From: Actinopolymorpha cephalotaxi
GTDB taxonomy: Bacteria > Actinomycetota > Actinomycetes > Propionibacteriales > Actinopolymorphaceae
Assembly: GCF_013408535.1 (NCBI RefSeq)
Contig: NZ_JACBZA010000001.1
Location: 1,548,850-1,572,849, forward strand
DNA length: 24,000 nucleotides
Direction: 5' to 3'
Under the pieces are notes generated by a model. That model saw only the letters and a list, made by a program, of their open reading frames with translations, did no database searches and had not been told where the DNA came from. The position numbers and the translations under genes were made by a program. Below, piece by piece: positions 12,526 through 22,751 of the stretch; within the stretch, counting starts at the first letter, position 1, and each line of letters begins with the position of its first letter.

Positions 12526-12657
12526 GCTTGATCTCTCCTCGTTGCCGATTCGTCGCGGATATCGTGCGGGGGAACGGATGTGAGAACTTCGAAACGCCTG
12601 TCCGGCGGATGCTACGCCGTGGGTCCCCCAGGGATCCGGTTCGGTAGGTTCGCGGTC

Positions 12658-13752
12658 ATGAAACGTTCGCCGCTGCACGACCGGCACCAGGCCCTGGGCG
12701 CGAAGTTCGCGGAGTTCGGCGGCTGGGAGATGCCGCTGGAGTACGCCGGAGGAGGCGTGCTGCGCGAGCACGCGGCGGTGCGGTCCGGCGCCGGCGTCTT
12801 CGACGTGAGCCATCTCGGCAAGGCGAGGGTCAGCGGACCGGGCGCGGCGGACTACGTCGACTCCACCCTGAGCAACTCCCTGGCCAGGATCGAGCCGGGC
12901 AAGGCGCAGTACACCCTGTGCTGCGACGACGCGACCGGCGGTGTCGTGGACGACCTGATCGCCTACCTGCGCGGACCGGACGAGGTGTTCCTCGTGCCGA
13001 ACGCCGCCAACTGCGCCGAGGTCGTCCGCCGGCTGGCCGCCCAGGCGCCGGACGGGGTGGAGGTCGTCGACCTGCACGAGGAGTTCGTGGTGCTCGCCGT
13101 CCAGGGACCGCGCAGCGACGACGTCCTCGCCGCCGCCGGGCTGCCGACCGGGCACGGGTACATGTCCTTCGTCCAGGCCGACTGGCAGGGGGCGCCGGTC
13201 ACCGTCTGCCGTACCGGCTACACCGGCGAACGCGGGTACGAACTGGTGGCGCCGGCGCACGCGGGGACGGCCCTGTGGGACGCGATCCTCGCCGCCGGGC
13301 AGGCGTACGACATCGCGGCCTGCGGACTCGGCGCCCGCGACACGCTGCGCACCGAGATGGGCTACCCCCTGCACGGGCAGGACATCTCCCTCGACATCAC
13401 CCCGGTGCAGGCCCGCCTCGGCTGGGCCGTCGGCTGGAAGAAGCCGGCGTTCTGGGGCCGGTCGGTGCTGTCGGCGGAGCGCGCCGCCGGGCCCAGCCGG
13501 CGGCTGCTCGGACTGGAGGCGGCCGGGCGGGGGATTCCCCGGCCGGGCATGTCCGTGGTCGACGCCGACGGTTCGCCGGTGGGCGTGGTGACCAGCGGGA
13601 CGTTCTCCCCGACCCGGCGGGTGGGGGTCGGGCTGGCGCTGCTGGACGCCGGGGTGAGCGAGGGCTCGGAGGTCGCGGTCGACGTACGCGGCCGGCGGGA
13701 GGCGTTCACGGTCCGCCGCCCGCCCTTCGTAGAGGCCTCGCCCACGTCCTGA
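12658..13752 (+). CDS. gcvT: Glycine cleavage system aminomethyltransferase (T protein)
   Basis: ATG 12658 gives [29 protein letters not shown], a typical GcvT N-terminus. Also present: [10 protein letters not shown] and [11 protein letters not shown]. Length 364 aa. Confidence 0.93.
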
Positions 13753-13786: not shown

Positions 13787-14530
13787 TCAGCCCGATACGT
13801 CCACAGCCTCGCCGAACGTGCCACCGGCGCGGAGCGTGGCGATCAGCTCAAGTACGCCGGTCCGGCCGCCGTGGGAGCTTGCCCAGCGGCTCACCACACA
13901 GGCGGCCTGCCGGTACGGCTGGTCCGTGCCGCCCTTGACCGCGGCGGCCCACTTCTCCGTGACGATCGGCAGGGCCTTCCGATAGGGCAGGCGGCATCGG
14001 TCCGCTTCGGACGAGGGCTTCAGGTAGCGGGAGTCGCCCGAGACCAGCACGGCCAGTCCTTCGTCGAACCAGTGCGGCACATCTGCGCGCGTCCTGCCCA
14101 GCCGTTCGTGGAACTCCACGTGGGACAGCTCGTGGGTGGCGATGGTGCGGTTTGCACCGGCGGGTGCGAGCATCAGGGCCGAGGTACCGAACGCCTTTCC
14201 CCTCTCACTGCCACCACCGATCCGCCGGTAGCACGCCGCAGTGCTACAGATCAGCACTCGCGGACGCGTCTTCAGGTCGCCGTAGAACGCGGCGATGTCG
14301 CTTTCCGCCTCATCGACAATTCGCCGGTACGCCGTGTCGCGTCGGTCGGTGTAGATGTCACCGCCCAGTCCAAAGAGCCCGTAGCACCGCGGGCACAGCG
14401 TCGCCGCGATCGCCGGTCGGGTCGCGGCCACCAGCCCGGCGGACACCAGCACGAAGACCACCACCATCCCGGCCACGACCCGCCATCGCCGCCTGCTGTT
14501 CAGGTCGTCGTCTCCGCCTGCCTGGCGCAC
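13787..14530 (-). CDS. Membrane-anchored HExxH (gluzincin-like) metallopeptidase, Cys-rich
   Basis: HELSHVEFHE followed 14 residues later by WFDEGLA, which resembles the M1/MA-clan pattern HExxH...E (third ligand) with WL.EG.A. An N-terminal RRRWR cluster plus a TM helix predicts an extracytoplasmic catalytic domain with 7 Cys, including CPRC. I prefer GTG 14530, which has AGGAGG at 14536-14541 (complement) at 5-nt spacing, over the track start 14581. Confidence 0.68.
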   Translation of the reverse strand: MRQAGGDDDLNSRRRWRVVAGMVVVFVLVSAGLVAATRPAIAATLCPRCYGLFGLGGDIYTDRRDTAYRRIVDEAESDIAAFYGDLKTRPRVLICSTAACYRRIGGGSERGKAFGTSALMLAPAGANRTIATHELSHVEFHERLGRTRADVPHWFDEGLAVLVSGDSRYLKPSSEADRCRLPYRKALPIVTEKWAAAVKGGTDQPYRQAACVVSRWASSHGGRTGVLELIATLRAGGTFGEAVDVSG

Positions 14531-14658
14531 GTCGGCCTCCTGTCCTTCCCGGGGTCCGCCCCCGTGATCATGCGGGATCACCTGTGATCAACGCGGGCCT
14601 TCCGGTCGAGGTTTCGGGGACGACCCGTGTCCCTGGGTGCCCCCCGGGACAGTCGCGG

Positions 14659-14681
14659 TTATCGCGTTTTCGAGATAGCGT
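14659..14681 (+). promoter_or_regulatory. Imperfect palindrome (candidate operator) overlapping a -10-like TAGCGT just upstream of the XRE gene
   Basis: TTATCGCG-TTTT-CGAGATAG (14659-14678) matches at 6 of 8 positions between arms and is AT-rich for this genome. TAGCGT (14676-14681, TAnnnT type) ends 7 nt before ATG 14689. There is no SD, which is compatible with a leaderless transcript. Confidence 0.33.
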
Positions 14682-14688
14682 TTCCGGT

Positions 14689-14994
14689 ATGGCGAACGAG
14701 CCCTCCCGGGCCTCCGCGGACTCCTCGGACTCCGCTGCCGGGGACGACGACCTGCCGGTGATGCCCGGTTTCCGGGAGATGGCGCTGCGGCGGCGGGCCC
14801 TGGCCGAGTCGCTGGTCGACCTGCGCCGCCGGTCCGGGCTGTCGCAGACTCAGGTGGCCGCCCGGATGGGTACGTCCCAGTCGGCGGTCGCCCGGCTGGA
14901 GGCCGGTGAGGCCGACGTACGCCTGTCCACCCTGGAGCGTTACGCCGCCGCCGTCGGTCACCGGCTCGACGTCCGGCTCGGCGGTGACACGTGA
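14689..14994 (+). CDS. XRE-family helix-turn-helix transcriptional regulator
   Basis: 101 aa. HTH core LRRRSGLSQTQVAARMGTSQSAVARLEAGEADVRLSTLERYAAAVGHRLDVRL is preceded by a Ser/Asp-rich tail. The ORF-track entry 14152-14994 is over-extended at the 5' end, where it runs antisense to the peptidase gene. Confidence 0.8.
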   Translation: MANEPSRASADSSDSAAGDDDLPVMPGFREMALRRRALAESLVDLRRRSGLSQTQVAARMGTSQSAVARLEAGEADVRLSTLERYAAAVGHRLDVRLGGDT

Positions 14995-14997
14995 CGC

Positions 14998-15051
14998 CTG
15001 ACCTGTACCGCTGACCGCTGATCGGCAACCGCTGACCGGCAGCCCCTGACC
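14998..15051. repeat. CTGACC repeats in the XRE / ClpP-like spacer
   Basis: CTGACC occurs at 14998, 15011, 15032 and 15046, plus CTGATC at 15018. The extended unit CCGCTGACCG recurs. The repeats fill most of the 77-bp spacer ahead of SD GGAGGAG (15060-15066). Confidence 0.7.
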
Positions 15052-15071
15052 GACAACCCGGAGGAGCCGTC

Positions 15072-15635
15072 ATGACCGACGACCGGGCGACGACCTTCGA
15101 CTCCTACGTCGCCGAGCAGTTGTTCCAGCGCCGGGTCGTGCTGGCCCGGGGCTTCCTCGACGAGGAGCACGCGACCCGTACGGCTGCCCAGCTGCTGACC
15201 CTGGAGGCGCTGGCGCCCGACCCGATCCAGCTGCACCTGTCCTGCCCGGACGGCACGCTGGCCGCCGCGCTCAGCCTGGCCGACACGGTGCGGGTCCTGC
15301 GCGCCGAGCTCACCGCGGTCGCGGTCGGTGAGGTGAACGGCCCGGCGGTCGGGGCGTTCGCGGCGGCGCCGGTGCGGGTCGCCTACCCACACGCGCGGTT
15401 CCTGCTGGCCGAGCCGAAGGCGTCCGAGCGCAGCGGCACCGCCTCCGAGGTGGACACCTACGCCCAGGAGTACCTCCGGCAGCGCGACGACCTGGTGGAC
15501 CTGCTGGCGGAGGCGACCGGGCGGCAGGCCGAGTCGGTCGCCGCCGACCTGCGCGCGGGCCGGTTCCTCACCGCCGAGGAGGCGGTCGGCTACGGCCTCG
15601 CCCAGCGGGTGGCCTCGGGGCGTTCCGTCCGCTGA
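15072..15635 (+). CDS. ClpP-fold protein lacking the catalytic Ser-His-Asp triad (pseudo-protease)
   Basis: 187 aa with ClpP-like blocks throughout: LSCPDG (for INSPGG), VGAFAAA, RVAYPHARFLLAEP (for R..LP.SR.MIHQP) and FLTAEEAVGYGLAQRV (for F.SA.EA..YGL.D.V). By hand alignment the triad positions read Ala92 (Ser), Ala113 (His) and Gly163 (Asp). SD GGAGGAG lies 5 nt upstream. Confidence 0.78.
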   Translation: MTDDRATTFDSYVAEQLFQRRVVLARGFLDEEHATRTAAQLLTLEALAPDPIQLHLSCPDGTLAAALSLADTVRVLRAELTAVAVGEVNGPAVGAFAAAPVRVAYPHARFLLAEPKASERSGTASEVDTYAQEYLRQRDDLVDLLAEATGRQAESVAADLRAGRFLTAEEAVGYGLAQRVASGRSVR

Positions 15636-16504
15636 GCCGGCGGCGCTGCGAGGTCCACCGGCGCCGCAGAGTCCACCGGCGCCGCAGAGTCCACCGGCGC
15701 CGCGAAGTCCACCGGTGCCTCGAACGCCGCCCGCCTGGCCGCCCGGCGCAGCGTGCCGAGCACCACCCGGCCGGCGAGCAGGATCAGGACGGCGTTCACC
15801 ACACCGCGTACGAAGTCCCACCCGAACGACGTGGTGACGTAGAACGCCGCGTAGTGGCGGAGGTTGGTGAGCACCGGCTCGCCCGCGGCGTAGCTCATCC
15901 CGGCCGGCAGCGAGGTCGAGAAGGGCCAGAACGACAGGTTCAGCAGCGCGCCGTACGCGAAGCCCGCCACGCCCGCGTACCCCGCGAGCAGCATCCGCTC
16001 GGCCCGGCCGGAAGCGTGCGGCAGGAGACCGGCAGCCAGCCCGACCCAGGCCAGGCCGACCATCTGGAACGGCAGCCACGGCCCCACGCCGCCGGTGGCG
16101 AGCCCGCTGGCCAGGATCATCACCGAACCCAGCGCGAACCCGAACCCCGCGCCGAACACCCGGGCGGCCAGGATCACCAGGAAGAGCGTCGGTTCGAACC
16201 CTCCGGTGCCCGGACTGAGTGCCCGCAGCGCGGTCCCGGCCGCGGCCAGCACGCCCAGCATGGCGACCGCCTTGGCATCCATGCCGCCCTCGGTCAGCTC
16301 GGCCAGCACGACCGCGATGACGAGGGGAAGCAGGACGAGGAAGAGGTACGGCGCGTTCGGGCCGGCGCCGCCAGCCGCGTCACCGGCTCCGGTCAGGAAC
16401 GGCCAGCCGAACCCCAGCACGCCGGCCAGGCCTGCCGCGGCGAGGGCCGCGACCGACCTGGGCCGCAGCCGGACGACCTCGGACCGCCCGGACCGTTCGG
16501 TCAC
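15590..16504 (-). CDS. ECF-transporter substrate-capture (S) component, multi-pass membrane protein
   Basis: GTG 16504 overlaps the upstream ATPase stop in a GTGA junction. The 304-aa product has about 6-7 hydrophobic helices and is the last gene of the ECF operon. The track entry 15590-16969 is over-extended at the 5' end. The C-terminal tail carries the (A)APVD(S/F/L)A x4 repeat, and its last 46 nt overlap the convergent ClpP-like gene. Confidence 0.72.
   Translation of the reverse strand: MTERSGRSEVVRLRPRSVAALAAAGLAGVLGFGWPFLTGAGDAAGGAGPNAPYLFLVLLPLVIAVVLAELTEGGMDAKAVAMLGVLAAAGTALRALSPGTGGFEPTLFLVILAARVFGAGFGFALGSVMILASGLATGGVGPWLPFQMVGLAWVGLAAGLLPHASGRAERMLLAGYAGVAGFAYGALLNLSFWPFSTSLPAGMSYAAGEPVLTNLRHYAAFYVTTSFGWDFVRGVVNAVLILLAGRVVLGTLRRAARRAAFEAPVDFAAPVDSAAPVDSAAPVDLAAPPAQRTERPEATRWARP
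15653..15724. repeat. 18-bp tandem repeat x4 (coding, C-terminal tail of the S component)
   Basis: Units are gtccaccggcgccgcaga (15653-15670 and 15671-15688, identical), gtccaccggcgccgcgaa (15689-15706) and gtccaccggtgcctcgaa (15707-15724). On the minus strand they encode APVDF-AAPVDS-AAPVDS-AAPVDL. Confidence 0.9.
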
Positions 16505-18210
16505 GACGCGGGTTCCAGCGCGGCCGCCACGTCGGTGACAGTGAGCCAGGGCTGAGGCCGCAGGATCTTCGCCACCTGCGGGGCGAACGTCGGCGACGCC
16601 GACACCACCGAACCCACCGGCCCGTCGGCGACCACCTCCCCGTCGGCGAGCACGACGACCCGGGTGGCCACCTCCGCGACGAGTTCGACGTCGTGAGTGG
16701 CGAACACCACGCCGTGCCCGGCGTCGGCGAGGTCCCGGACGATCCGCGTCAACCGCGCCTTGGCGGTGTAGTCCAGGCCGCGGGTGGGCTCGTCCAGGAG
16801 CAGCAGCGGTGGCTGCCCGGTGAGCACGACGGCCAGCGCCAGGCACAGCCGCTGCCCCTCGGACAGGTCGCGGGGATGACGGTTCGGGGGTACGCCGGGC
16901 GCCAGCCGCTCCAGCAGCCGGGCACAGCTCCCGGCCGGTGCGTCGAAGTCCCGATCGGCCTGGCCGCACTCCTGCGCCACCGTTTCCGCGTACAGCAGGC
17001 TGCCCGGATCCTGCGGCACCAGCCCGACCGCCCGGGCGATCGCGCGCGGCTTGGCGGTGGCCGGGTCCACCGTGCCCACCGGGTCCGCCCGGCCGACCCG
17101 GACCGTGCCCGCCACCGGACGCACCAGCCCCACCAGTGAGCCGAGCAACGTGGACTTGCCCGCGCCGTTGCGGCCCATCAGCGCGACCACCTCGCCGGCC
17201 GCGACGTCGAGGGTGAGGTCGCGCACCGCCGGCGGCTGCGCGGATCGGCGGCCGCCGTACCGGACGGTCAGCTCGTGCACCGTCGCCACCGTCCTCACCG
17301 GGTCGGTCGTGTCCACCGTGTCCACCGTGTCAACCGAGCGCCGGCCGTTCGAGACAGGCTTTCGGGGTACGCCGGTCCGCACCGGCGGGCGCATCGGCGC
17401 GAGACGTTCGCGCAGTGGACCGGCCATCCGCCGGGCGTCCCGGACGCTGAGGGGGAGCGGGTCCCACCCGGCGAGCCGGCCGAGCGCGACCACCGGCGGC
17501 GCGACCGAGGAACGGGCCATCATCTGCGCGGGTGGGCCGACCTCCAGCGCGTCGCCGGTCCCGCGGACCAGCACCACCCGGTCGGCGTACTGCACCACGC
17601 GCTCGAGCCGGTGCTCGGCCAGCAGCACCGTCACCCCGAGGTCGTGCACCAGCCGCTGGAGGGCGGCGAGCACCTCCTCGGCGGCCTGCGGGTCCAGCGC
17701 CGACGTCGGCTCGTCCAGCACCAGGATCCGGGGATGGGTGGTGAGGACCGCGCCGATCGCGACCCGCTGCTGCTGCCCGCCGGACAGCGAGGCGATCGGC
17801 CGCCCGCGTACGCCGGCCAGGCCGAGCAGGTCGAGGGTCTCCTCCACGCGGGTACGCATCACGTCCGGCGGCAGCCCCAGCGACTCCATGCCGTACGCCA
17901 GTTCGTCTTCCACCGTGTCGGTGACGAACCCGGCGAGGGGATCCTGCCCGACCACACCCACCACGTCGGCGAGGTCACGTGGCCGGTGGGTGCGGGTGTC
18001 CCGGCCGTCGACGAGGACGCGGCCGGCCATCGTCCCGCCGGTGAAGTGCGGCACCAGCCCGTTGACCGCCCGCAGCAGCGTGCTCTTGCCGGCGCCGGTC
18101 TGCCCGACGACCAGGCACAGCTCGCCCTCGGCGACCTCGAACGTGACGTCCTGCAGGACCGGCGACGCGGCGCCGGGATAGCGCACGGTCACCGACTCGA
18201 ACCTGATCAC
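16501..18210 (-). CDS. ECF-type ABC transporter, fused duplicated ATPase (EcfA-EcfA')
   Basis: 569 aa from GTG 18210, which has SD GGAGG upstream and a GTGA overlap with the EcfT stop. It contains two ABC cassettes. Cassette 1: Walker A GQTGAGKST, signature LSGGQQQR, Walker B ILVLDEPTS. Cassette 2: Walker A GRNGAGKST, signature LSEGQRLC, Walker B LLLLDEPTRG. The track ORF 16501-19302 is over-extended at the 5' end. Confidence 0.92.
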   Translation of the reverse strand: MIRFESVTVRYPGAASPVLQDVTFEVAEGELCLVVGQTGAGKSTLLRAVNGLVPHFTGGTMAGRVLVDGRDTRTHRPRDLADVVGVVGQDPLAGFVTDTVEDELAYGMESLGLPPDVMRTRVEETLDLLGLAGVRGRPIASLSGGQQQRVAIGAVLTTHPRILVLDEPTSALDPQAAEEVLAALQRLVHDLGVTVLLAEHRLERVVQYADRVVLVRGTGDALEVGPPAQMMARSSVAPPVVALGRLAGWDPLPLSVRDARRMAGPLRERLAPMRPPVRTGVPRKPVSNGRRSVDTVDTVDTTDPVRTVATVHELTVRYGGRRSAQPPAVRDLTLDVAAGEVVALMGRNGAGKSTLLGSLVGLVRPVAGTVRVGRADPVGTVDPATAKPRAIARAVGLVPQDPGSLLYAETVAQECGQADRDFDAPAGSCARLLERLAPGVPPNRHPRDLSEGQRLCLALAVVLTGQPPLLLLDEPTRGLDYTAKARLTRIVRDLADAGHGVVFATHDVELVAEVATRVVVLADGEVVADGPVGSVVSASPTFAPQVAKILRPQPWLTVTDVAAALEPAS

Positions 18211-19352
18211 GCGAGCACCTCCGAGGACGGGTCGGACGAGCCTGCCGATCCCGATGAACCGGTCACTGGCAGCGGCGGCGGTGAGCACCAGGCGGGCAGC
18301 AGGCCCAGCAGGGCACCGATCGTGGGCAGCACCGGCAGGCCGGGCAAAGTCAGGGGAGAGGCGGACACGACGACGTCGGGTACGCCGGTGGACGCGGCCC
18401 AGGTGAACGCCGCGGCGACGGCCACGCCGCTGGCCGCGACCAGCCACTCCGGCAGCGCCCACGGGTCGGGGCGGTACCTCGTGCGCACGGCCCGCCGCCC
18501 GGCCAGCGCCAGGCCGGCCACCGCGGCCGCGCCGCCGGCCACCAGCATCGGCACGCCGAACAACGGCCCGCCGTCGGCGGCGAGCAGGCCGTAGGCGCCC
18601 GCGCACAGACCGACCAGGCCGCCGAGGACGAGGACCGCGGTCACCGTCCGGGTGGCCCGCGGCACCTGACCCACCCGGCCGTACCCTCGCGAGTCCATCG
18701 CCGCGGCCAGCGCCAGCGAGCGTTCCAGCGCACCCTCCAGCAAAGGAACGGCGGTGGCGCGCAGCGAACGCAGGCCCCGGTCGGCCCGGCCGCGCAGCCT
18801 GCGTGCCGCCCGGGCCCGCGCGGCGTCCCCGACCAGCTGGGGCGCGAACGTCATCGCGACCACCACGGCCACGCCGAGCTCGTACAGCGCACCCGGCATC
18901 GCGGCCAGCAGCCGCTTGGGGTTGGCCAGCGCGTTCGCGGCGCCGATGCAGGCGAGGACGGCGGCCAGCCGGAGCCCGTCGTACGCCGCGGACGCCAGCG
19001 CCTCGGCGGTCACCGCACCGCCGATTCGGATCCCCTCCAGCCAGCCGGGCAGCGGCACCTGGGGCAACGTGAGGAGCACGGTCCGCCCGGTCACCGCCGC
19101 GCCGAACAGCGACTGGAAGACCACCCGGATCGCGATCACCACCAGCCCGAGCCGCAGGAACGCGCCATAGGACCGTGCCCACGGCGCGGACGTACGACGA
19201 GCCGCCACCACGTAGCCGGCGACGGCGAGCACCAGCACCAGCAGGAGCGGGTTCGTGGTGCGGCTGGCCGCCGTCGCCAGGCCGAGCGCCCACAGCCACC
19301 ACGCACCCGGGTGGAGGGTGCGCGGCAGCGAGGGACGGTGGACGGCGCGCAT
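18207..19352 (-). CDS. ecfT: ECF transporter transmembrane (T) component, CbiQ/EcfT family
   Basis: ATG 19352 lies 4 nt after the upstream stop. The product is polytopic and has the two coupling-helix Ala-Arg-Gly type motifs (ARAARRLRGR and AAAMDSRGYG). At 381 aa it is long for the family. Confidence 0.82.
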   Translation of the reverse strand: MRAVHRPSLPRTLHPGAWWLWALGLATAASRTTNPLLLVLVLAVAGYVVAARRTSAPWARSYGAFLRLGLVVIAIRVVFQSLFGAAVTGRTVLLTLPQVPLPGWLEGIRIGGAVTAEALASAAYDGLRLAAVLACIGAANALANPKRLLAAMPGALYELGVAVVVAMTFAPQLVGDAARARAARRLRGRADRGLRSLRATAVPLLEGALERSLALAAAMDSRGYGRVGQVPRATRTVTAVLVLGGLVGLCAGAYGLLAADGGPLFGVPMLVAGGAAAVAGLALAGRRAVRTRYRPDPWALPEWLVAASGVAVAAAFTWAASTGVPDVVVSASPLTLPGLPVLPTIGALLGLLPAWCSPPPLPVTGSSGSAGSSDPSSEVLA

Positions 19353-19356
19353 CGGC

Positions 19357-20139
19357 TCAGGCGCCCTGGTCGGCGTTCCGCTGGCTGCGCAGGAACAGCA
19401 GCCCGCCGCCCAGCAGGACGACGAGGACCGCCACCACCGGGAGGACCGGCAGCCCGCCGGAGCCCGCGTCGACGGCCCGATCGCCGGCGCCTTCGCGGGG
19501 TTCACCGGCGCCGGCCTTCTTTCCGCCCGCCTTGGCCTCGGCGTGAACCGCGGGCAACGCCAGCGCGACGGTCGGCTCCGGCGAGGCGACCGCCGGCTCC
19601 TTCTTCACCGGGTCGCCGCAGCCACTGGAGGGGAAGCCGTCGATCCCGCAGATCATGCTCTTCTGGTCGCGGACGTCGGCGACGGCGGCGAGCACCTGCG
19701 CGGAGTTCGCCTTGGCGTCCACGAGCGCGCACGCGCCCCGGGGCTTCGCGGGGGACTGCCCGCCGGGCGCCTCGTCGGCCAGGCCGTAGTCGAGGACGAC
19801 GCCGACCCGCTTCTTTCCGGCCTGGGCCTTGGTGTCACCGCAGAGCTCGGCGAAGTCGGCGGCCGCCCGCGGCAGCCGGGGCGGCGACTTCTCACCCGAC
19901 ACCGCGAACCGCCAGCCGTCGACGGCGCCGTCCTTCGGGGTGACCGAGCCGGGGCCGACCGAGGCCATCTTCCAGGCGTGGTCGGTCCACTGGAAGAAGC
20001 CCCAGTAGCGGTACGCGGACGCCTGCGCGACCCCGGCGCCGAGGGTCGTGGCGAGCAGGCCGGCGGCCAGCACGGTCGCCAGGGTGGTCAGGACGATGGC
20101 CGCGGCAGAACGCCGGGCCTTCGACGGGGCGAGCCTCAT
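19357..20139 (-). CDS. Exported, C-terminally membrane-anchored protein; resembles the SCO2322 family found with actinobacterial ECF modules
   Basis: Signal peptide (MRLAPSKARRS...GAGVAQA/SA), a mature domain starting YRYWGFFQW, a Pro/Ala/Lys-rich spacer, and a C-terminal hydrophobic helix with a basic tail (LLFLRSQRN). SD GAGGGA lies 5 nt upstream of ATG 20139. The family name is from memory. Confidence 0.68.
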   Translation of the reverse strand: MRLAPSKARRSAAAIVLTTLATVLAAGLLATTLGAGVAQASAYRYWGFFQWTDHAWKMASVGPGSVTPKDGAVDGWRFAVSGEKSPPRLPRAAADFAELCGDTKAQAGKKRVGVVLDYGLADEAPGGQSPAKPRGACALVDAKANSAQVLAAVADVRDQKSMICGIDGFPSSGCGDPVKKEPAVASPEPTVALALPAVHAEAKAGGKKAGAGEPREGAGDRAVDAGSGGLPVLPVVAVLVVLLGGGLLFLRSQRNADQGA

Positions 20140-20303
20140 TCGGGTCCCTCTTTCTCATGGTGCGGTCACGGCCAAGGGAACCGGGACCACACATGAGAAC
20201 GCCCCCGGCTACGTGCGGCGTGGAACGCCGGTAGCCGAGGGCAGGGCTCGGGTGCGTGACCCGCGCTCCGCCCGCAGACCTCGACGGGAGTCGTGGAGCC
20301 GGT

Positions 20304-20486
20304 CGTCGTCGGCAGGTGCTCCGGCTCGCCGCGGGCACCCGGTGAGTTCGTACGATCTCGGCTCGACGGCGGGTCGGGCCAGGTCGTGCGGACCTGCGGG
20401 CACGCGGCCTACGGTTGCGGGTCAGCGCCGGATTCGGACCGGCTTTCCCTGCGTGCGGAAACCCGGGTGGGTCCCGCCCGACGACG
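20304..20486 (-). promoter_or_regulatory. Cobalamin (B12) riboswitch aptamer
   Basis: The minus-strand RNA carries the conserved core AGGGAAAGCCGGUCCGAAUCCGGCGCUGACCCGCAACCGUAGG (20450->20408). The B12 box is GAGCCGGAGCACCUGCC (20327->20311). A 9-bp closing helix pairs CGUCGUCGG (20486->20478) with CCGACGACG (20312->20304). A P3-like hairpin GCGGGACCC-ACCC-GGGUUUCCGC sits just 5' of the GGGAA. The roughly 183-nt size is typical, and the aptamer ends 164 nt upstream of the first ECF-operon gene. Confidence 0.8.
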
Positions 20487-20499
20487 TCGTGCAGGACGG

Positions 20500-20528
20500 A
20501 CGCTCTCACGGCCGCCCCGGGAAGTCAA
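20500..20528 (-). promoter_or_regulatory. Candidate housekeeping-type promoter for the riboswitch/ECF operon
   Basis: On the minus strand, TTGACT (20528->20523) is followed by 14 nt and then TGA-GAGCGT (20508->20500), an extended -10 with the conserved A2 and T6. The predicted TSS is about 7 nt upstream of the aptamer closing helix. This is a pattern match only. Confidence 0.3.
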
Positions 20529-20712
20529 AGATGTCCCGAACCCGGCGAGACGTTCCGGTGCGAGGCGCCTATGCCAGGTCTGTGTCGAGTCGGGTGCCGG
20601 GCCTGGGCCGGGCCTGGTGTCGGGCCGACCGGCCCGGCCGCGCGACCGGCACCGGCCGTGCCCGACCGAGCCGACCACGACAGGCCCCGGGAAACCTCTA
20701 AGCTCGGCTTTC

Positions 20713-20922
20713 ATGACCTGGACGTGGCGACTCGAAGATTCCGAGGGCAACCCCGTGGACGCCGGCGAGCTCGCCCGCAGCGAGTTCCCGTCGCAGAGCG
20801 ACGCGGAGAGCTGGATCGGTGAAACCTGGCGCGAACTCGCCGGAAGCGGTGTCGACCGGGTGACGCTGCTCGAAGCCGGGCGCGAGGTCTACGGCCCGAT
20901 GAGCCTGCACCCCGCCGACTGA
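20713..20922 (+). CDS. Small conserved hypothetical protein (69 aa)
   Basis: MTWTWRLEDSEGNPV...AESWIGETWRELAGSGVDRVTLLEAGREVYGPMSL. GC3 bias is strong. The in-frame upstream extension (track ORF 20293-20922) is Arg-rich and non-protein-like. No clear SD. Confidence 0.62.
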   Translation: MTWTWRLEDSEGNPVDAGELARSEFPSQSDAESWIGETWRELAGSGVDRVTLLEAGREVYGPMSLHPAD

Positions 20923-20977: not shown

Positions 20978-21580
20978 CTAGGCGGAGATCTTCTCCCCGC
21001 CGGGCTTGACCTGCGGCTTGGGCATCCGCAGCCGCCGGATCTGGGTCGAGCGCATGATGCCGTACGACAGTGCGCCGCGGTGGCTCTCATTGGGGAACTG
21101 CTCCCGCAGCCCCTTCTTCAGCCGCCGTCCCAACAGCACCAGGTCCAGCGGCACGATGATGATCGCCACCAGCCAGAGGTAGGTCGCCACCACGCGTACC
21201 TGCGGCATCGGCAACGTCATGAAGATGAAGATGACCAGGAAGTACGGCAGGAGGTACTCCGCCGGGGTGCGGCGCGAGTCGACGTAGTCGCGGACGAACC
21301 TGCGGACCGGTCCCTTGTCCCGCGCCGGGAGGTAGCGCTCGTCGCCGGTGGCCATCGCCTGCTGCATCCTGGCCCGCTCGGAACGGGACTTCTCCCGCTG
21401 CTGGCGGATCGCCTCTTTGCGGTCGCGCGGCGCGCTGACCCGGGTCTTGCGGGCCTGCTCTGCCTCACGGCGCTTGGGCGTGGGGCGTCCCTTGCCGCCG
21501 GAGCCGCCGGTCTTCTCGGACGGCGTCGGCTCGGTGGCCGTCTCGGCGGGGGCCTCGGTTGTCGTATGGCGTCGGAACAC
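20978..21580 (-). CDS. DUF3043-family membrane protein
   Basis: 200 aa from GTG 21580 (GTG 21586 is an alternative). The N-terminal half is basic (KRREAEQARK...RDRKEAIRQQREKSR) and is followed by two TM helices (YLLPYFLVIFIFMTL and VATYLWLVAIIIVPLDLVLL). The track ORF 20978-21976 is over-extended at the 5' end. Confidence 0.78.
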   Translation of the reverse strand: MFRRHTTTEAPAETATEPTPSEKTGGSGGKGRPTPKRREAEQARKTRVSAPRDRKEAIRQQREKSRSERARMQQAMATGDERYLPARDKGPVRRFVRDYVDSRRTPAEYLLPYFLVIFIFMTLPMPQVRVVATYLWLVAIIIVPLDLVLLGRRLKKGLREQFPNESHRGALSYGIMRSTQIRRLRMPKPQVKPGGEKISA

Positions 21581-21757
21581 GCCCACAGAGTAACGGTCCG
21601 GCAAATCCGCGCCCCAGCCCGGCCCGGGAGGTGACCGGCGTGGTCCGCGACCGGATCCGCCCGCGAACCCGACCCGCGTCTCCATCGGCGCCGCCACGCG
21701 CGAACCGCCACGGAAACCGCCCGGAAATACCGCCGGAAACGGCTGAAACGCTCCGCC

Positions 21758-21786
21758 GGGAACTCCGTGAGTTCGCCGCTCGTCTA
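21758..21786 (+). promoter_or_regulatory. ECF-sigma-type promoter candidate upstream of pspA
   Basis: GGGAAC (21758-21763), 17 nt, then CGTCTA (21781-21786) fits the generic ECF pattern AAC-N16/17-CGT. An overlapping TGAAAC (21744-21749)-N16-CGTGA also fits. The site is about 140 nt upstream of the pspA ATG. Confidence 0.35.
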
Positions 21787-21926
21787 GGGGAAATGTCCGG
21801 GGGAGGTGGGGTCGCCCTTGTACGTTCGTCGGCATAGGGTGAACCCACACACGACGCCGTCCCGTGCCATCCGCGGCAGGGAGGCACGACCGGCTTTCTG
21901 TGAGACGAAGGGGGCGGCCGACCTCG

Positions 21927-22751
21927 ATGGGTATTCTCAACCGCTTCGCGATGATCTTCCGCGCGAAGGCCAACAAGGCGATGGACCGCGCCGAAGACCC
22001 GCGCGAGACGCTCGACTACTCCTACACGAAGCAGCTGGAGATGCTCCAGAAGGTCCGGCGTGGTGTGGCTGACGTCGCGACCAGCCGCAAGCGGCTCGAG
22101 CTGCAGATGAACCAGCTCAACCAGCAGTCGAACAAGCTCAAGGACCAGGCGCAGAAGGCGTTGTCGATGGGCCGGGAGGACCTCGCTCGCGAGGCGCTGA
22201 CCCGCCGGTCCGGGGTCGAGCAGCAGGTGTCCGACCTCAGCACGCAGCACGCCACGCTGCAGGGCGAGGAGGAGAAGCTCACCCTCGCGGCGCAGCGCCT
22301 GCAGACCAAGGTCGAGGCGTTCCGCACCAAGAAGGAAACCATCAAGGCCACCTACACCGCGGCCGAGGCGCAGACCCGCGTCGGCGAGGCGTTCACCGGG
22401 ATCTCCGAGGAGATGGGCGACGTCAACATGGCCGTGCAGCGGGCCGAGGACAAGACGGCCGAGCTGCAGGCCCGTTCCGGTGCGATCGACGAGCTGTTGG
22501 CCTCCGGCGCGCTGGACGACGTCACCGGCACCAGCAAGGACGACATCTCCCTGGAGCTGGAGCGGATGGCGTCCGGCAACGACGTCGAGAGCGAGCTGGC
22601 CGCGATGAAGGCCCAGCTCGGTGGGGGCTCGGCACCGGCCCGCGAGATCGAGGGCCAGGCCACCCCGGGCGAGCAGGCATCGCCGTCCGCGACGCAGCAG
22701 TCCGCCCAGCCCGCACCGGACCAGCCGCAAAGGCAGGGTGAGGGATCGTGA
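21927..22751 (+). CDS. pspA: PspA/IM30-family envelope-stress protein
   Basis: ATG 21927 gives MGILNRFAMIFRAKANKAMDRAEDPRETLDYSY, a typical PspA N-terminus. The body has a coiled-coil composition and ends in a Gln/Pro-rich tail. Length 274 aa. Confidence 0.92.
   Translation: MGILNRFAMIFRAKANKAMDRAEDPRETLDYSYTKQLEMLQKVRRGVADVATSRKRLELQMNQLNQQSNKLKDQAQKALSMGREDLAREALTRRSGVEQQVSDLSTQHATLQGEEEKLTLAAQRLQTKVEAFRTKKETIKATYTAAEAQTRVGEAFTGISEEMGDVNMAVQRAEDKTAELQARSGAIDELLASGALDDVTGTSKDDISLELERMASGNDVESELAAMKAQLGGGSAPAREIEGQATPGEQASPSATQQSAQPAPDQPQRQGEGS

Follow-up and report, generated by a model that had tools for sequence, protein, structure and literature searches.

Herein, a 24,000-nt stretch of the Actinopolymorpha cephalotaxi genome (the window; contig NZ_JACBZA010000001.1) was analysed for a minus-strand leader RNA and the four-gene energy-coupling factor (ECF) transporter operon that follows it. 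The leader was found to be a structured, conserved homologue of cobalamin riboswitches, and conservation of the operon is deep, extending over hundreds of actinobacterial species. Taken as a whole, the evidence makes it probable that a cobalamin riboswitch heads a dedicated ECF importer with a corrinoid as its substrate. Such a system, consisting of a B12 riboswitch and a dedicated, probably corrinoid-importing ECF transporter, had been proposed in a preliminary description made from the sequence alone. This part of the proposal was strengthened by the leaders found in 74 of 80 species, by covariation, by Rfam matches in 6 of 16 orthologous loci and by cobU-cobS neighbours in 33 of 80 species, whereas the corrinoid-capture role suggested for the exported protein encoded first in the operon gained no such support.

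The leader RNA and its relationship to cobalamin riboswitches

The spacer upstream of the operon and the parts of its aptamer are as follows.

20140-20712, read on the minus strand: 573-bp spacer holding the candidate promoter and the cobalamin riboswitch
20304..20486 (-): cobalamin-riboswitch aptamer, 183 nt, from sequence, minimum free energy (MFE) fold, family model and covariation in orthologues
20486-20478 with 20312-20304 (-): P1, a perfect 9-bp helix of CGUCGUCGG with CCGACGACG
~20477-20455 (-): P2 hairpin
20450->20408 (-): aptamer core AGGGAAAGCCGGUCCGAAUCCGGCGCUGACCCGCAACCGUAGG, mostly invariant across 58 aligned leaders
20451-20448 with 20316-20313 (-): P3, in which the B12-box CCUG pairs with the core CAGG
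20443-20427 (-): P4
20424-20416 (-): P5/L5
20414-20412 with 20323-20321 (-): P6 base
20408-20403 with 20333-20328 (-): P6
20334..20402 (-): lineage-specific P6 expansion of 69 nt, where cmsearch counts a 65-nt insertion in the P6 loop
20327->20311 (-): B12 box GAGCCGGAGCACCUGCC, from sequence, motif search and alignment

The core, the B12 box and the 9-bp closing helix were all present where the preliminary description had placed them, and the helix was also recovered in the MFE fold. According to sequence and MFE fold, all helices of the aptamer (P1, P3, P4 and the P6 base) are intact, canonical and fully paired, while the P3 pairs between core CAGG and B12-box CCUG covary in orthologues (CG/AU/GC/UG). 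In common with RF00174 (clan CL00101), the RNA has GGGAA, a GCCGGU...CCGGC hairpin, GCUGACCCGCAAC, the B12 box and the P1/P3/P4/P5/P6 architecture.

Direct comparison with Rfam was less favourable. A significant minus-strand RF00174 match at 20300-20490 had been predicted, and its absence had been named as grounds for dismissing the riboswitch; cmscan of the whole window gave no RF00174 match at the gathering score of 31.5 bits, and permissive filters returned only a local 28-nt match of 19 bits (model positions 51-79) at 20416-20443, within the core. These results weigh against the assignment, together with two further points: no class-I peripheral motif was seen in the window P6 arm by eye, without a formal search, and two Kribbella species (loci L030 and L038) have the operon without the riboswitch. 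The sub-threshold score is probably caused by the two departures of the window copy from the family consensus, namely the P2 hairpin between P1 and P3 and the 69-nt insertion in P6. Owing to the latter, the distance from core to B12 box is 87 nt in the window and in the sister metagenome-assembled genome (MAG) L001, compared with 20-60 nt elsewhere, and the apical part of the expansion differs even from that of L001. Since these insertions are lineage-specific, a significant RF00174 match was too strict an expectation for this copy.

By a profile search with the SCO2322-family protein encoded by the first operon gene, relatives were found in at least 592 species-representative genomes, and 80 loci were kept from Intrasporangiaceae/Dermatophilaceae, Kribbellaceae, Nocardioidaceae, Jiangellaceae, Streptomycetaceae and other families. 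Sequence homologous to the window leader was detected by nhmmer directly upstream of the gene in ~40 loci, and core and B12 box were both found by motif search in ~72. Furthermore, 6 of 16 orthologous loci passed the RF00174 gathering score at 32-43 bits, with full-length compact aptamers of ~130 nt. Rfam as sole arbiter was therefore rejected, as the window fails this test, yet orthologues homologous to it pass.

Alignment of the full leaders with raw MAFFT and RNAalifold recovered only P3, P4 and two conserved contacts, with P1 and P6 misaligned; trimming the seed and building a covariance model overcame this. For 39 aligned compact leaders, a structure comprising P1, P3, P4, P5, the P6 base and the P6 hairpin was written out explicitly. 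In these, 87.1% of cells were paired, as opposed to at most 45.7% in slid registers, compensatory double changes occurred in 16 of 26 pairs, and 139 cells were changed on both sides compared with 57.8 in shuffles (reached by 0 of 500 shuffles). The covariance model built from this seed, R1, gave a single full-length match in the window at 20467-20296 (-), with 61.2 bits and an E-value of ~2e-17, a score near the bottom of the family range. One match each was obtained in 74 of the 80 loci, always upstream of and co-oriented with the operon, so that the same leader accompanies SCO2322/ECF operons in other actinobacteria. The six negative loci include L005, which has no upstream sequence, L039 and L042, which are without transporter genes, and the Kribbella loci L030 and L038. 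All six loci passing RF00174 (L023, L014, L040, L060, L017 and L007) were matched by R1 as well. For 75 R1-aligned leaders, an alignment that leans towards the model, 91.4% of cells were paired, double changes were present in 18 of 26 pairs, and 319 cells were changed on both sides as compared with 106 in shuffles.

Because orthologous leaders pass Rfam, are homologous to that of the window and show strong covariation, the window element is considered real despite the Rfam miss. It is a divergent member of RF00174, belonging to a compact actinobacterial lineage and expanded in Actinopolymorpha. Most members of this lineage have a plain P6 hairpin and differ from RF00174 in the absence of the usual peripheral extension, and the lineage has a GGCUCC...CGNGG-loop...GGAGNC hairpin after the aptamer; the P2 hairpin and the 69-nt P6 expansion are additions of the window copy. 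A real riboswitch thus lies below a curated threshold, which calls for caution in threshold-based riboswitch annotation.

At the other extreme of size, ultra-minimal leaders of ~90 nt were observed in Streptomyces (L055 3509-3598, L057 3520-3610 and L060 3522-3609). These are without the P6 hairpin (CAACCGU, 2-5 nt, B12 box) and score 70-74 bits with R1, and L060 passes RF00174. Opposite the aptamer, a weak match to the mycobacterial small RNA family ncrMT1302 at 20437-20543 (+), with 15 bits against a gathering score of 45 and an E-value of 4.4, is almost certainly noise from GC-rich complementary sequence.

The transporter operon and its proteins

The operon downstream of the leader comprises four genes.

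19357..20139 (-): SCO2322-family gene, 260 aa, first in the operon
18207..19352 (-): ECF T component gene, 381 aa
16501..18210 (-): fused double ATPase (EcfA-EcfA') gene, 569 aa
15590..16504 (-): ECF S component gene, 304 aa, fourth in the operon

The genes are packed with a 4-nt gap followed by two 4-nt stop/start overlaps. The first gene product matches P0001 of A. cephalotaxi at 100%, and independent gene calls on a public contig encoding this product gave the same arrangement, with lengths of 260, 381 and 569 aa ahead of the S gene, in agreement with the boundaries and packing first described. The four-gene order was retained in essentially all loci examined.

The protein assignments of the preliminary description were reproduced by independent means. 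The T component matches the CbiQ/EcfT family PF02361 at 25.8 bits (cut-off 25), and solved EcfT chains match it at E-values of 0.007-0.014; orthologous T components are unmarked for PF02361. Its EcfT/CbiQ core spans residues 13-226 and is followed by a C-terminal extension of ~150 residues (~residues 231-381, window 18207-18662 (-)) with about four extra hydrophobic segments. This extension is kept in 74 subject sequences (loci and window) and is a family trait co-occurring with SCO2322. The ATPase carries two ABC_tran domains (PF00005). Its best NCBIfam matches, ECF_ATPase_2 and ECF_ATPase_1, both fall below their equivalog cut-offs, a shortfall due to fusion or divergence of the protein, and cbiO (TIGR01166) is matched above its own cut-off.

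For the S component, homologues are named ECF S component in their sources, and PF12822 matches 28 of 46 family members. Its AlphaFold2 model, with a predicted local distance difference test score (pLDDT) of 80, has about 7 helices, and the top Foldseek matches are ECF S components (4huq_S, RibU, FolT, BioY, ThiT and NikM) with a probability of 1.0 and target-normalised template modelling scores of 0.65-0.70. NikM (4m5b) gives the longest alignment, as a generic S-fold match. Comparison with solved S components by single sequence and by profile was without match in both cases, and the CbiM/NikM family models matched neither the window S protein nor any of 46 homologues. The large sizes first reported for the S (304 aa) and T (381 aa) components hold and were found to be family features. 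The S component starts with a basic, cytoplasmic segment, and the protein exceeds solved S components by an extra N-terminal helix and a disordered, repeat-containing tail. The tail (~residues 261-304, window 15590-15720 (-)) is a low-confidence Pro/Ala-rich region with tandem AAPVDS-like repeats (FEAPVDFAAPVDSAAPVDSAAPVDLAAPP), and it accounts for part of the unusual length of the protein. In addition, two paralogous S components with ~72% and ~64% identity to that of the window were observed in each of A. alba (P0057/P0083), A. pittospori (P0060/P0085) and Flindersiella (P0063/P0100), which suggests that several Actinopolymorphaceae genomes hold a further copy of the system, or a module that is shared, at another site. 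Based on sequence matches and structural models, the four proteins are assigned to a dedicated (group-I-like) ECF transporter, for which ATP-dependent import is predicted.

The SCO2322-family protein was recognized by SCO2322_fam NF040672 with 175 bits and, in precomputed annotation, by PF28005; the family comprises ~1,850 clusters at 50% identity. It consists of a signal peptide, a beta-rich globular domain of ~150 aa, a low-complexity linker and a C-terminal transmembrane anchor. Four Cys are invariant in the alignments of the globular domain, which is modelled by AlphaFold2 with pLDDT above 94. A Foldseek search of the PDB with this model revealed no solved relative (best E-value 2.9), and the modelled fold is apparently novel.

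In Streptomycetaceae and in a single Motilibacteraceae MAG, the riboswitch is followed first by a gene for a member of the SCO2321 family (NF053823), an exported, C-terminally anchored alpha/alpha-toroid (L060 3706-4932, L058 3541-4845, L082 8748-10001 and 21 other loci). The stop codon of SCO2321 overlaps the start of SCO2322, an arrangement of translational coupling; a SCO2321 homologue was not found in the window. The SCO2321 profile matches squalene-hopene cyclases and prenyltransferase beta subunits. A sequence relationship to transcobalamin was rejected, since the profile misses transcobalamin, intrinsic factor and haptocorrin and only the general toroid fold class is shared.

Role of the exported protein and choice of substrate

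For ligand binding, for the direction and mode of regulation, for the substrate and for the role of SCO2322, we infer the following scheme. A candidate promoter and then the minus-strand cobalamin riboswitch (20486-20304) would head the ECF operon. When intracellular cobalamin is high, the aptamer would bind it and operon expression would fall, presumably at the level of translation and/or through Rho-dependent termination; when cobalamin is low, the importer would be made. The membrane S component would bind a corrinoid (cobalamin and/or cobinamide), which would then be translocated by toppling, as is usual for ECF transporters. SCO2322, anchored on the extracytoplasmic side of the membrane, probably helps to capture or deliver the substrate.

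Exported partners of this kind have precedents, and the earlier statement that ECF transporters work without an extracytoplasmic partner was overstated (PMC1796856; bioRxiv 10.1101/864751). In CbiO/CbiQ-type operons of Gram-positive bacteria lacking B12 synthesis, Burroughs et al. (2007; PMC1796856) predicted transcobalamin-like SLBB domains anchored at the cell surface, in many cases combined with an alpha/alpha-toroid, that would scavenge B12. Furthermore, in Lactobacillus sakei lsa1836-1840, separate alpha-like and beta-like exported proteins are encoded beside an ECF set, for which the authors argue a function in haem uptake (bioRxiv 10.1101/864751). Like these proteins, SCO2322 has a signal peptide and a C-terminal anchor and is encoded with an ECF T/A set, and the SCO2321-SCO2322 pair of Streptomyces mirrors the layout of toroid and second exported protein predicted for B12 scavenging in Firmicutes (PMC1796856; bioRxiv 10.1101/864751). 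However, SCO2322 is without detectable SLBB/DUF4430, the window is without a toroid, and the actinobacterial system is under riboswitch control and in many cases fused to cobU-cobS.

A more far-reaching reading, which can be put forward only tentatively, is that SCO2322 (with SCO2321 in Streptomycetaceae) constitutes a structurally unprecedented, membrane-tethered corrinoid-capture module that hands its substrate to the enlarged ECF S/T pair, and that many soil Actinomycetota salvage B12/cobinamide mainly through this system. If so, ECF transporters, which are defined as free of substrate-binding proteins, would have evolved a partner resembling one. The operon thus offers a test of the use of extracytoplasmic partners by ECF transporters. 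Several results speak against a capture function. Profile comparison of SCO2322 with PDB and Pfam found nothing relevant and no link to a corrinoid binder, and a relationship to SLBB/DUF4430 (the transcobalamin beta-domain) was detected neither by profile nor by Foldseek. The capture role proposed in the preliminary description is accordingly conjectural, with no fold or sequence link to a corrinoid-binding domain. SCO2321-SCO2322 fusions were considered as a Rosetta stone, and none occurred in the best 150 of ~1,850 representatives (170-442 aa).

It is equally conceivable, at a similarly low level of confidence, that SCO2322 is a structural, assembly or cell-envelope subunit without ligand contact, docking for example to the extra transmembrane helices of the T component. 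This agrees with its lack of similarity to any ligand-binding domain and with the co-occurrence of SCO2322 and the T extension, which could be its membrane partner; in addition, ECF S components themselves bind substrate with high affinity (PMC5997447). Such a role is less easily reconciled with the strict conservation of SCO2322 as a first gene after the riboswitch, with its translational coupling to an alpha/alpha-toroid protein in Streptomyces, or with analogues of the exported-partner layout that are predicted to bind B12 (PMC1796856).

As the S component has no specific similarity to CbrT, BtuM or CbiM/NikM, its substrate was judged from context. The operon of Terrabacter lapilli (L084 14343-15792) runs into cobU-cobS with overlapping stop/start codons. 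More generally, 33 of 80 species from several families (Terrabacter, Kribbella, Intrasporangium, Pedococcus, Nocardioidaceae and others) carry a co-oriented cobU after the S gene, mostly accompanied by cobS (e.g., L003 9306-10704 and L025 9084-10429); in 27 of these species the gap to cobU is within 120 nt. The two genes are appended neither in the window nor in Streptomycetaceae. CobU and CobS, the enzymes of nucleotide-loop assembly, are needed for the conversion of imported cobinamide to cobalamin. The joining of the operon to cobU-cobS favours a corrinoid over cobalt, and corrinoid import is considered, on the balance of this analysis, the most likely function, with fair though not strong confidence. 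Certain points count against it. Apart from the operon, no B12-related genes, including cobU and cobS, were found in the 24-kb window, and none of the Foldseek matches of the S model is described as CbrT or BtuM. Moreover, the cobU-cobS linkage is suggestive and not decisive, as these genes also serve late de novo steps and riboswitches also control cobalt transporters.

That cobalt (or another metal) is the substrate and feeds B12 synthesis, with the four-Cys SCO2322 as a metal-handling subunit like CbiN or NikK/NikL, appears unlikely but deserves attention. Cobalamin riboswitches commonly control cobalt importers, CbiMNQO being often under such control, and many hosts, e.g. Streptomyces, are B12 producers; cobU and cobS belong to the de novo pathway too. 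Family matches of the T component and the ATPase are to CbiQ and cbiO, respectively, and it is the metal-type NikM (4m5b) that heads the Foldseek list in alignment length. Cobalt transport is also listed among riboswitch-linked functions in Actinobacteria (PMC9600381). However, the S family is without any CbiM/NikM model match, and the names CbiQ and cbiO are generic for ECF modules. The genes joined to the operon are the two nucleotide-loop (cobinamide salvage) genes and not a chelatase or early cbi genes, and the four invariant Cys of the exported protein would be explained more simply by two disulfides. The alpha/alpha-toroid of the partner SCO2321 is, in addition, a known corrinoid-binding and not a metal-binding architecture (PMC1796856). 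CbiMNQO and NikMNQO (with CbiN, NikK and NikL) likewise pair a dedicated ECF module with small extra subunits that face the outside of the membrane, but the exported 150-aa globular domain of SCO2322 is unlike CbiN or NikL.

Among characterized corrinoid importers, ECF-CbrT of Lactobacillus delbrueckii takes up cobalamin and cobinamide, a role first predicted from genomic context; it has a small S component, a general (group II) ECF module and no exported partner (PMC5997447). The system of the window differs in its dedicated module, an S component of ~270-300 aa unrelated in sequence, a T component with extra transmembrane segments and an exported protein encoded first. In acI Actinobacteria, which are B12 auxotrophs, an ECF module behind cobalamin riboswitches was read as a B12 importer (Kang et al., 2017; PMC5301498); this is a one-sentence genome annotation in which the SCO2322-family gene is not mentioned. 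Mycobacteria take up B12 via BacA/Rv1819c and are reported to lack ECF components (2025 review, PMC12713380). SCO2322-2325 are unmentioned in the searchable literature, in which the only paper on SCO2321 has no connection with B12 transport; the family may already be listed in the survey of Rodionov et al. (2009; PMC2612444). Both B12-riboswitch-linked ECF importers and exported B12-binding partners had been predicted earlier. What is apparently new relative to the literature found is the breadth and constancy of a system combining riboswitch, SCO2322, extended T component, fused ATPase and large S component, together with the recurrent cobU-cobS fusion and the SCO2322 fold. Being under a B12 riboswitch and repeatedly fused to cobU-cobS, the operon is a concrete, testable candidate for the missing actinobacterial B12/corrinoid importer.

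Expression platform and genomic surroundings

Regulatory features flanking the aptamer in the spacer are the following.

20500..20528 (-): candidate promoter, with -35 TTGACT at 20528-20523, a 17-nt spacer and a -10-like GAGCGT (A2/T6) at 20505-20500
20265..20300 (-): post-aptamer hairpin, with outer GCUCC 20299-20295 pairing with GGAGC 20269-20265, inner CCCG/CGGG and loop UCGAGGUCUG
20140..20264 (-): rest of the expression platform, with two very stable hairpins (fold z-score -3.9) followed by the Shine-Dalgarno (SD) sequence
20152-20145 (-): SD AAGAGGGA, 5 nt before the ATG at 20139

A TTGAC(A/G/T) plus GTGGGA(C/G)NGT-like element is present at the same distance in most orthologous leaders, and from these sequences we infer a promoter just upstream of P1 and a transcript start a few nt before it. 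A scan of the spacer with the E. coli (sigma-70) consensus reported no promoter. By pattern search, a module of GGCUCC, 6-10 nt, an inner stem with a CGNGG-initiated loop and GGAGNC was found after the aptamer in ~50 loci, and the post-aptamer hairpin may represent a candidate P13/L13-like regulatory hairpin. Since L5 is nearly invariant across orthologues, no covariation is measurable for a putative kissing-loop contact (L5-L13) between it and the CGNGG loop of this hairpin. In the compact lineage, the SD lies 40-110 nt downstream of the post-aptamer hairpin and not inside it, and many orthologues have an explicit CCUCCUC...GAGGAGG sequestor hairpin.

Repression of the operon by B12 through the leader is assumed by analogy with other cobalamin riboswitches. 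A relay model, in which B12-box GAGCC, GGCUC, GGAGNC, anti-SD CCUCC and SD would pair in succession, was examined by constrained partition-function folding. In the window, SD accessibility was 0.33 with a closed and 0.36 with an open aptamer, i.e. no difference, and the means over 21 orthologues, only 2 of which shift, were 0.23 and 0.25. The relay was therefore rejected as an equilibrium mechanism, as neither the window nor 19 of 21 orthologues showed a change in SD accessibility. A scan of the spacer found no intrinsic terminator. The switch could act through translation, Rho-dependent termination or a tertiary contact.

It is very unlikely that the riboswitch of the window is a decaying relic, disabled by the P2 and P6 insertions, with the operon expressed constitutively or controlled otherwise. 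A relic would fit the sub-threshold Rfam score, the position of the window near the bottom of the R1 scores, the large and fast-evolving P6 insertion and the complete loss of the element in two Kribbella species. However, the columns invariant over 58 aligned leaders are all kept in the window (by definition, as the alignment includes it), P1, P3, P4 and the P6 base are preserved with all their pairs, and the post-aptamer hairpin is retained. The insertions lie at positions where cobalamin riboswitches tolerate variable hairpins, and the sister L001 retains the same architecture. The least probable alternative is the import of another tetrapyrrole or cofactor such as haem, with the B12 riboswitch merely coupling the operon to B12 status: the substrate cannot be read from the S fold alone, and haem uptake has been argued for the L. 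sakei ECF operon, which is similar in architecture and encodes transcobalamin-like alpha and beta proteins (bioRxiv 10.1101/864751), yet B12 riboswitch control and cobU-cobS fusion would then be without obvious logic, and hemin is not accepted by ECF-CbrT (PMC5997447).

The surroundings of the operon were compared across the fetched loci as well. A 69-aa open reading frame (ORF), MTWTWRLEDSEGNPVD..., adjoins the operon at window 20713-20922 (+) and is without Pfam or NCBIfam match. Its homologues, with 50-70% identity, lie beside the operon in 43 fetched loci, mostly in divergent orientation. In Kribbella this ORF is co-directional with the operon and ends ~14 nt before the riboswitch, and in the Kribbella loci L030 and L038 it abuts the SCO2322 gene, the riboswitch being absent between them.

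At the other end of the operon, a convergent ClpP-like ORF (PF00574, E-value 1e-28; window 15072-15635 (+)) overlaps the last ~45 nt of the S gene, and the corresponding syntenic slot holds cobU-cobS in Terrabacter. The minus-strand ORFs below it, at 14588-15073 and 13787-14581, had no family match. Flanking genes common to Actinopolymorpha and Terrabacter (L084) were observed on both sides:

20978-21976 (-): DUF3043 protein, upstream of the operon
12580-13752 (+): glycine-cleavage T protein, downstream of the operon and on the opposite strand

Given this shared flanking synteny, the operon is placed in a conserved core-chromosome neighbourhood and not on a mobile island.

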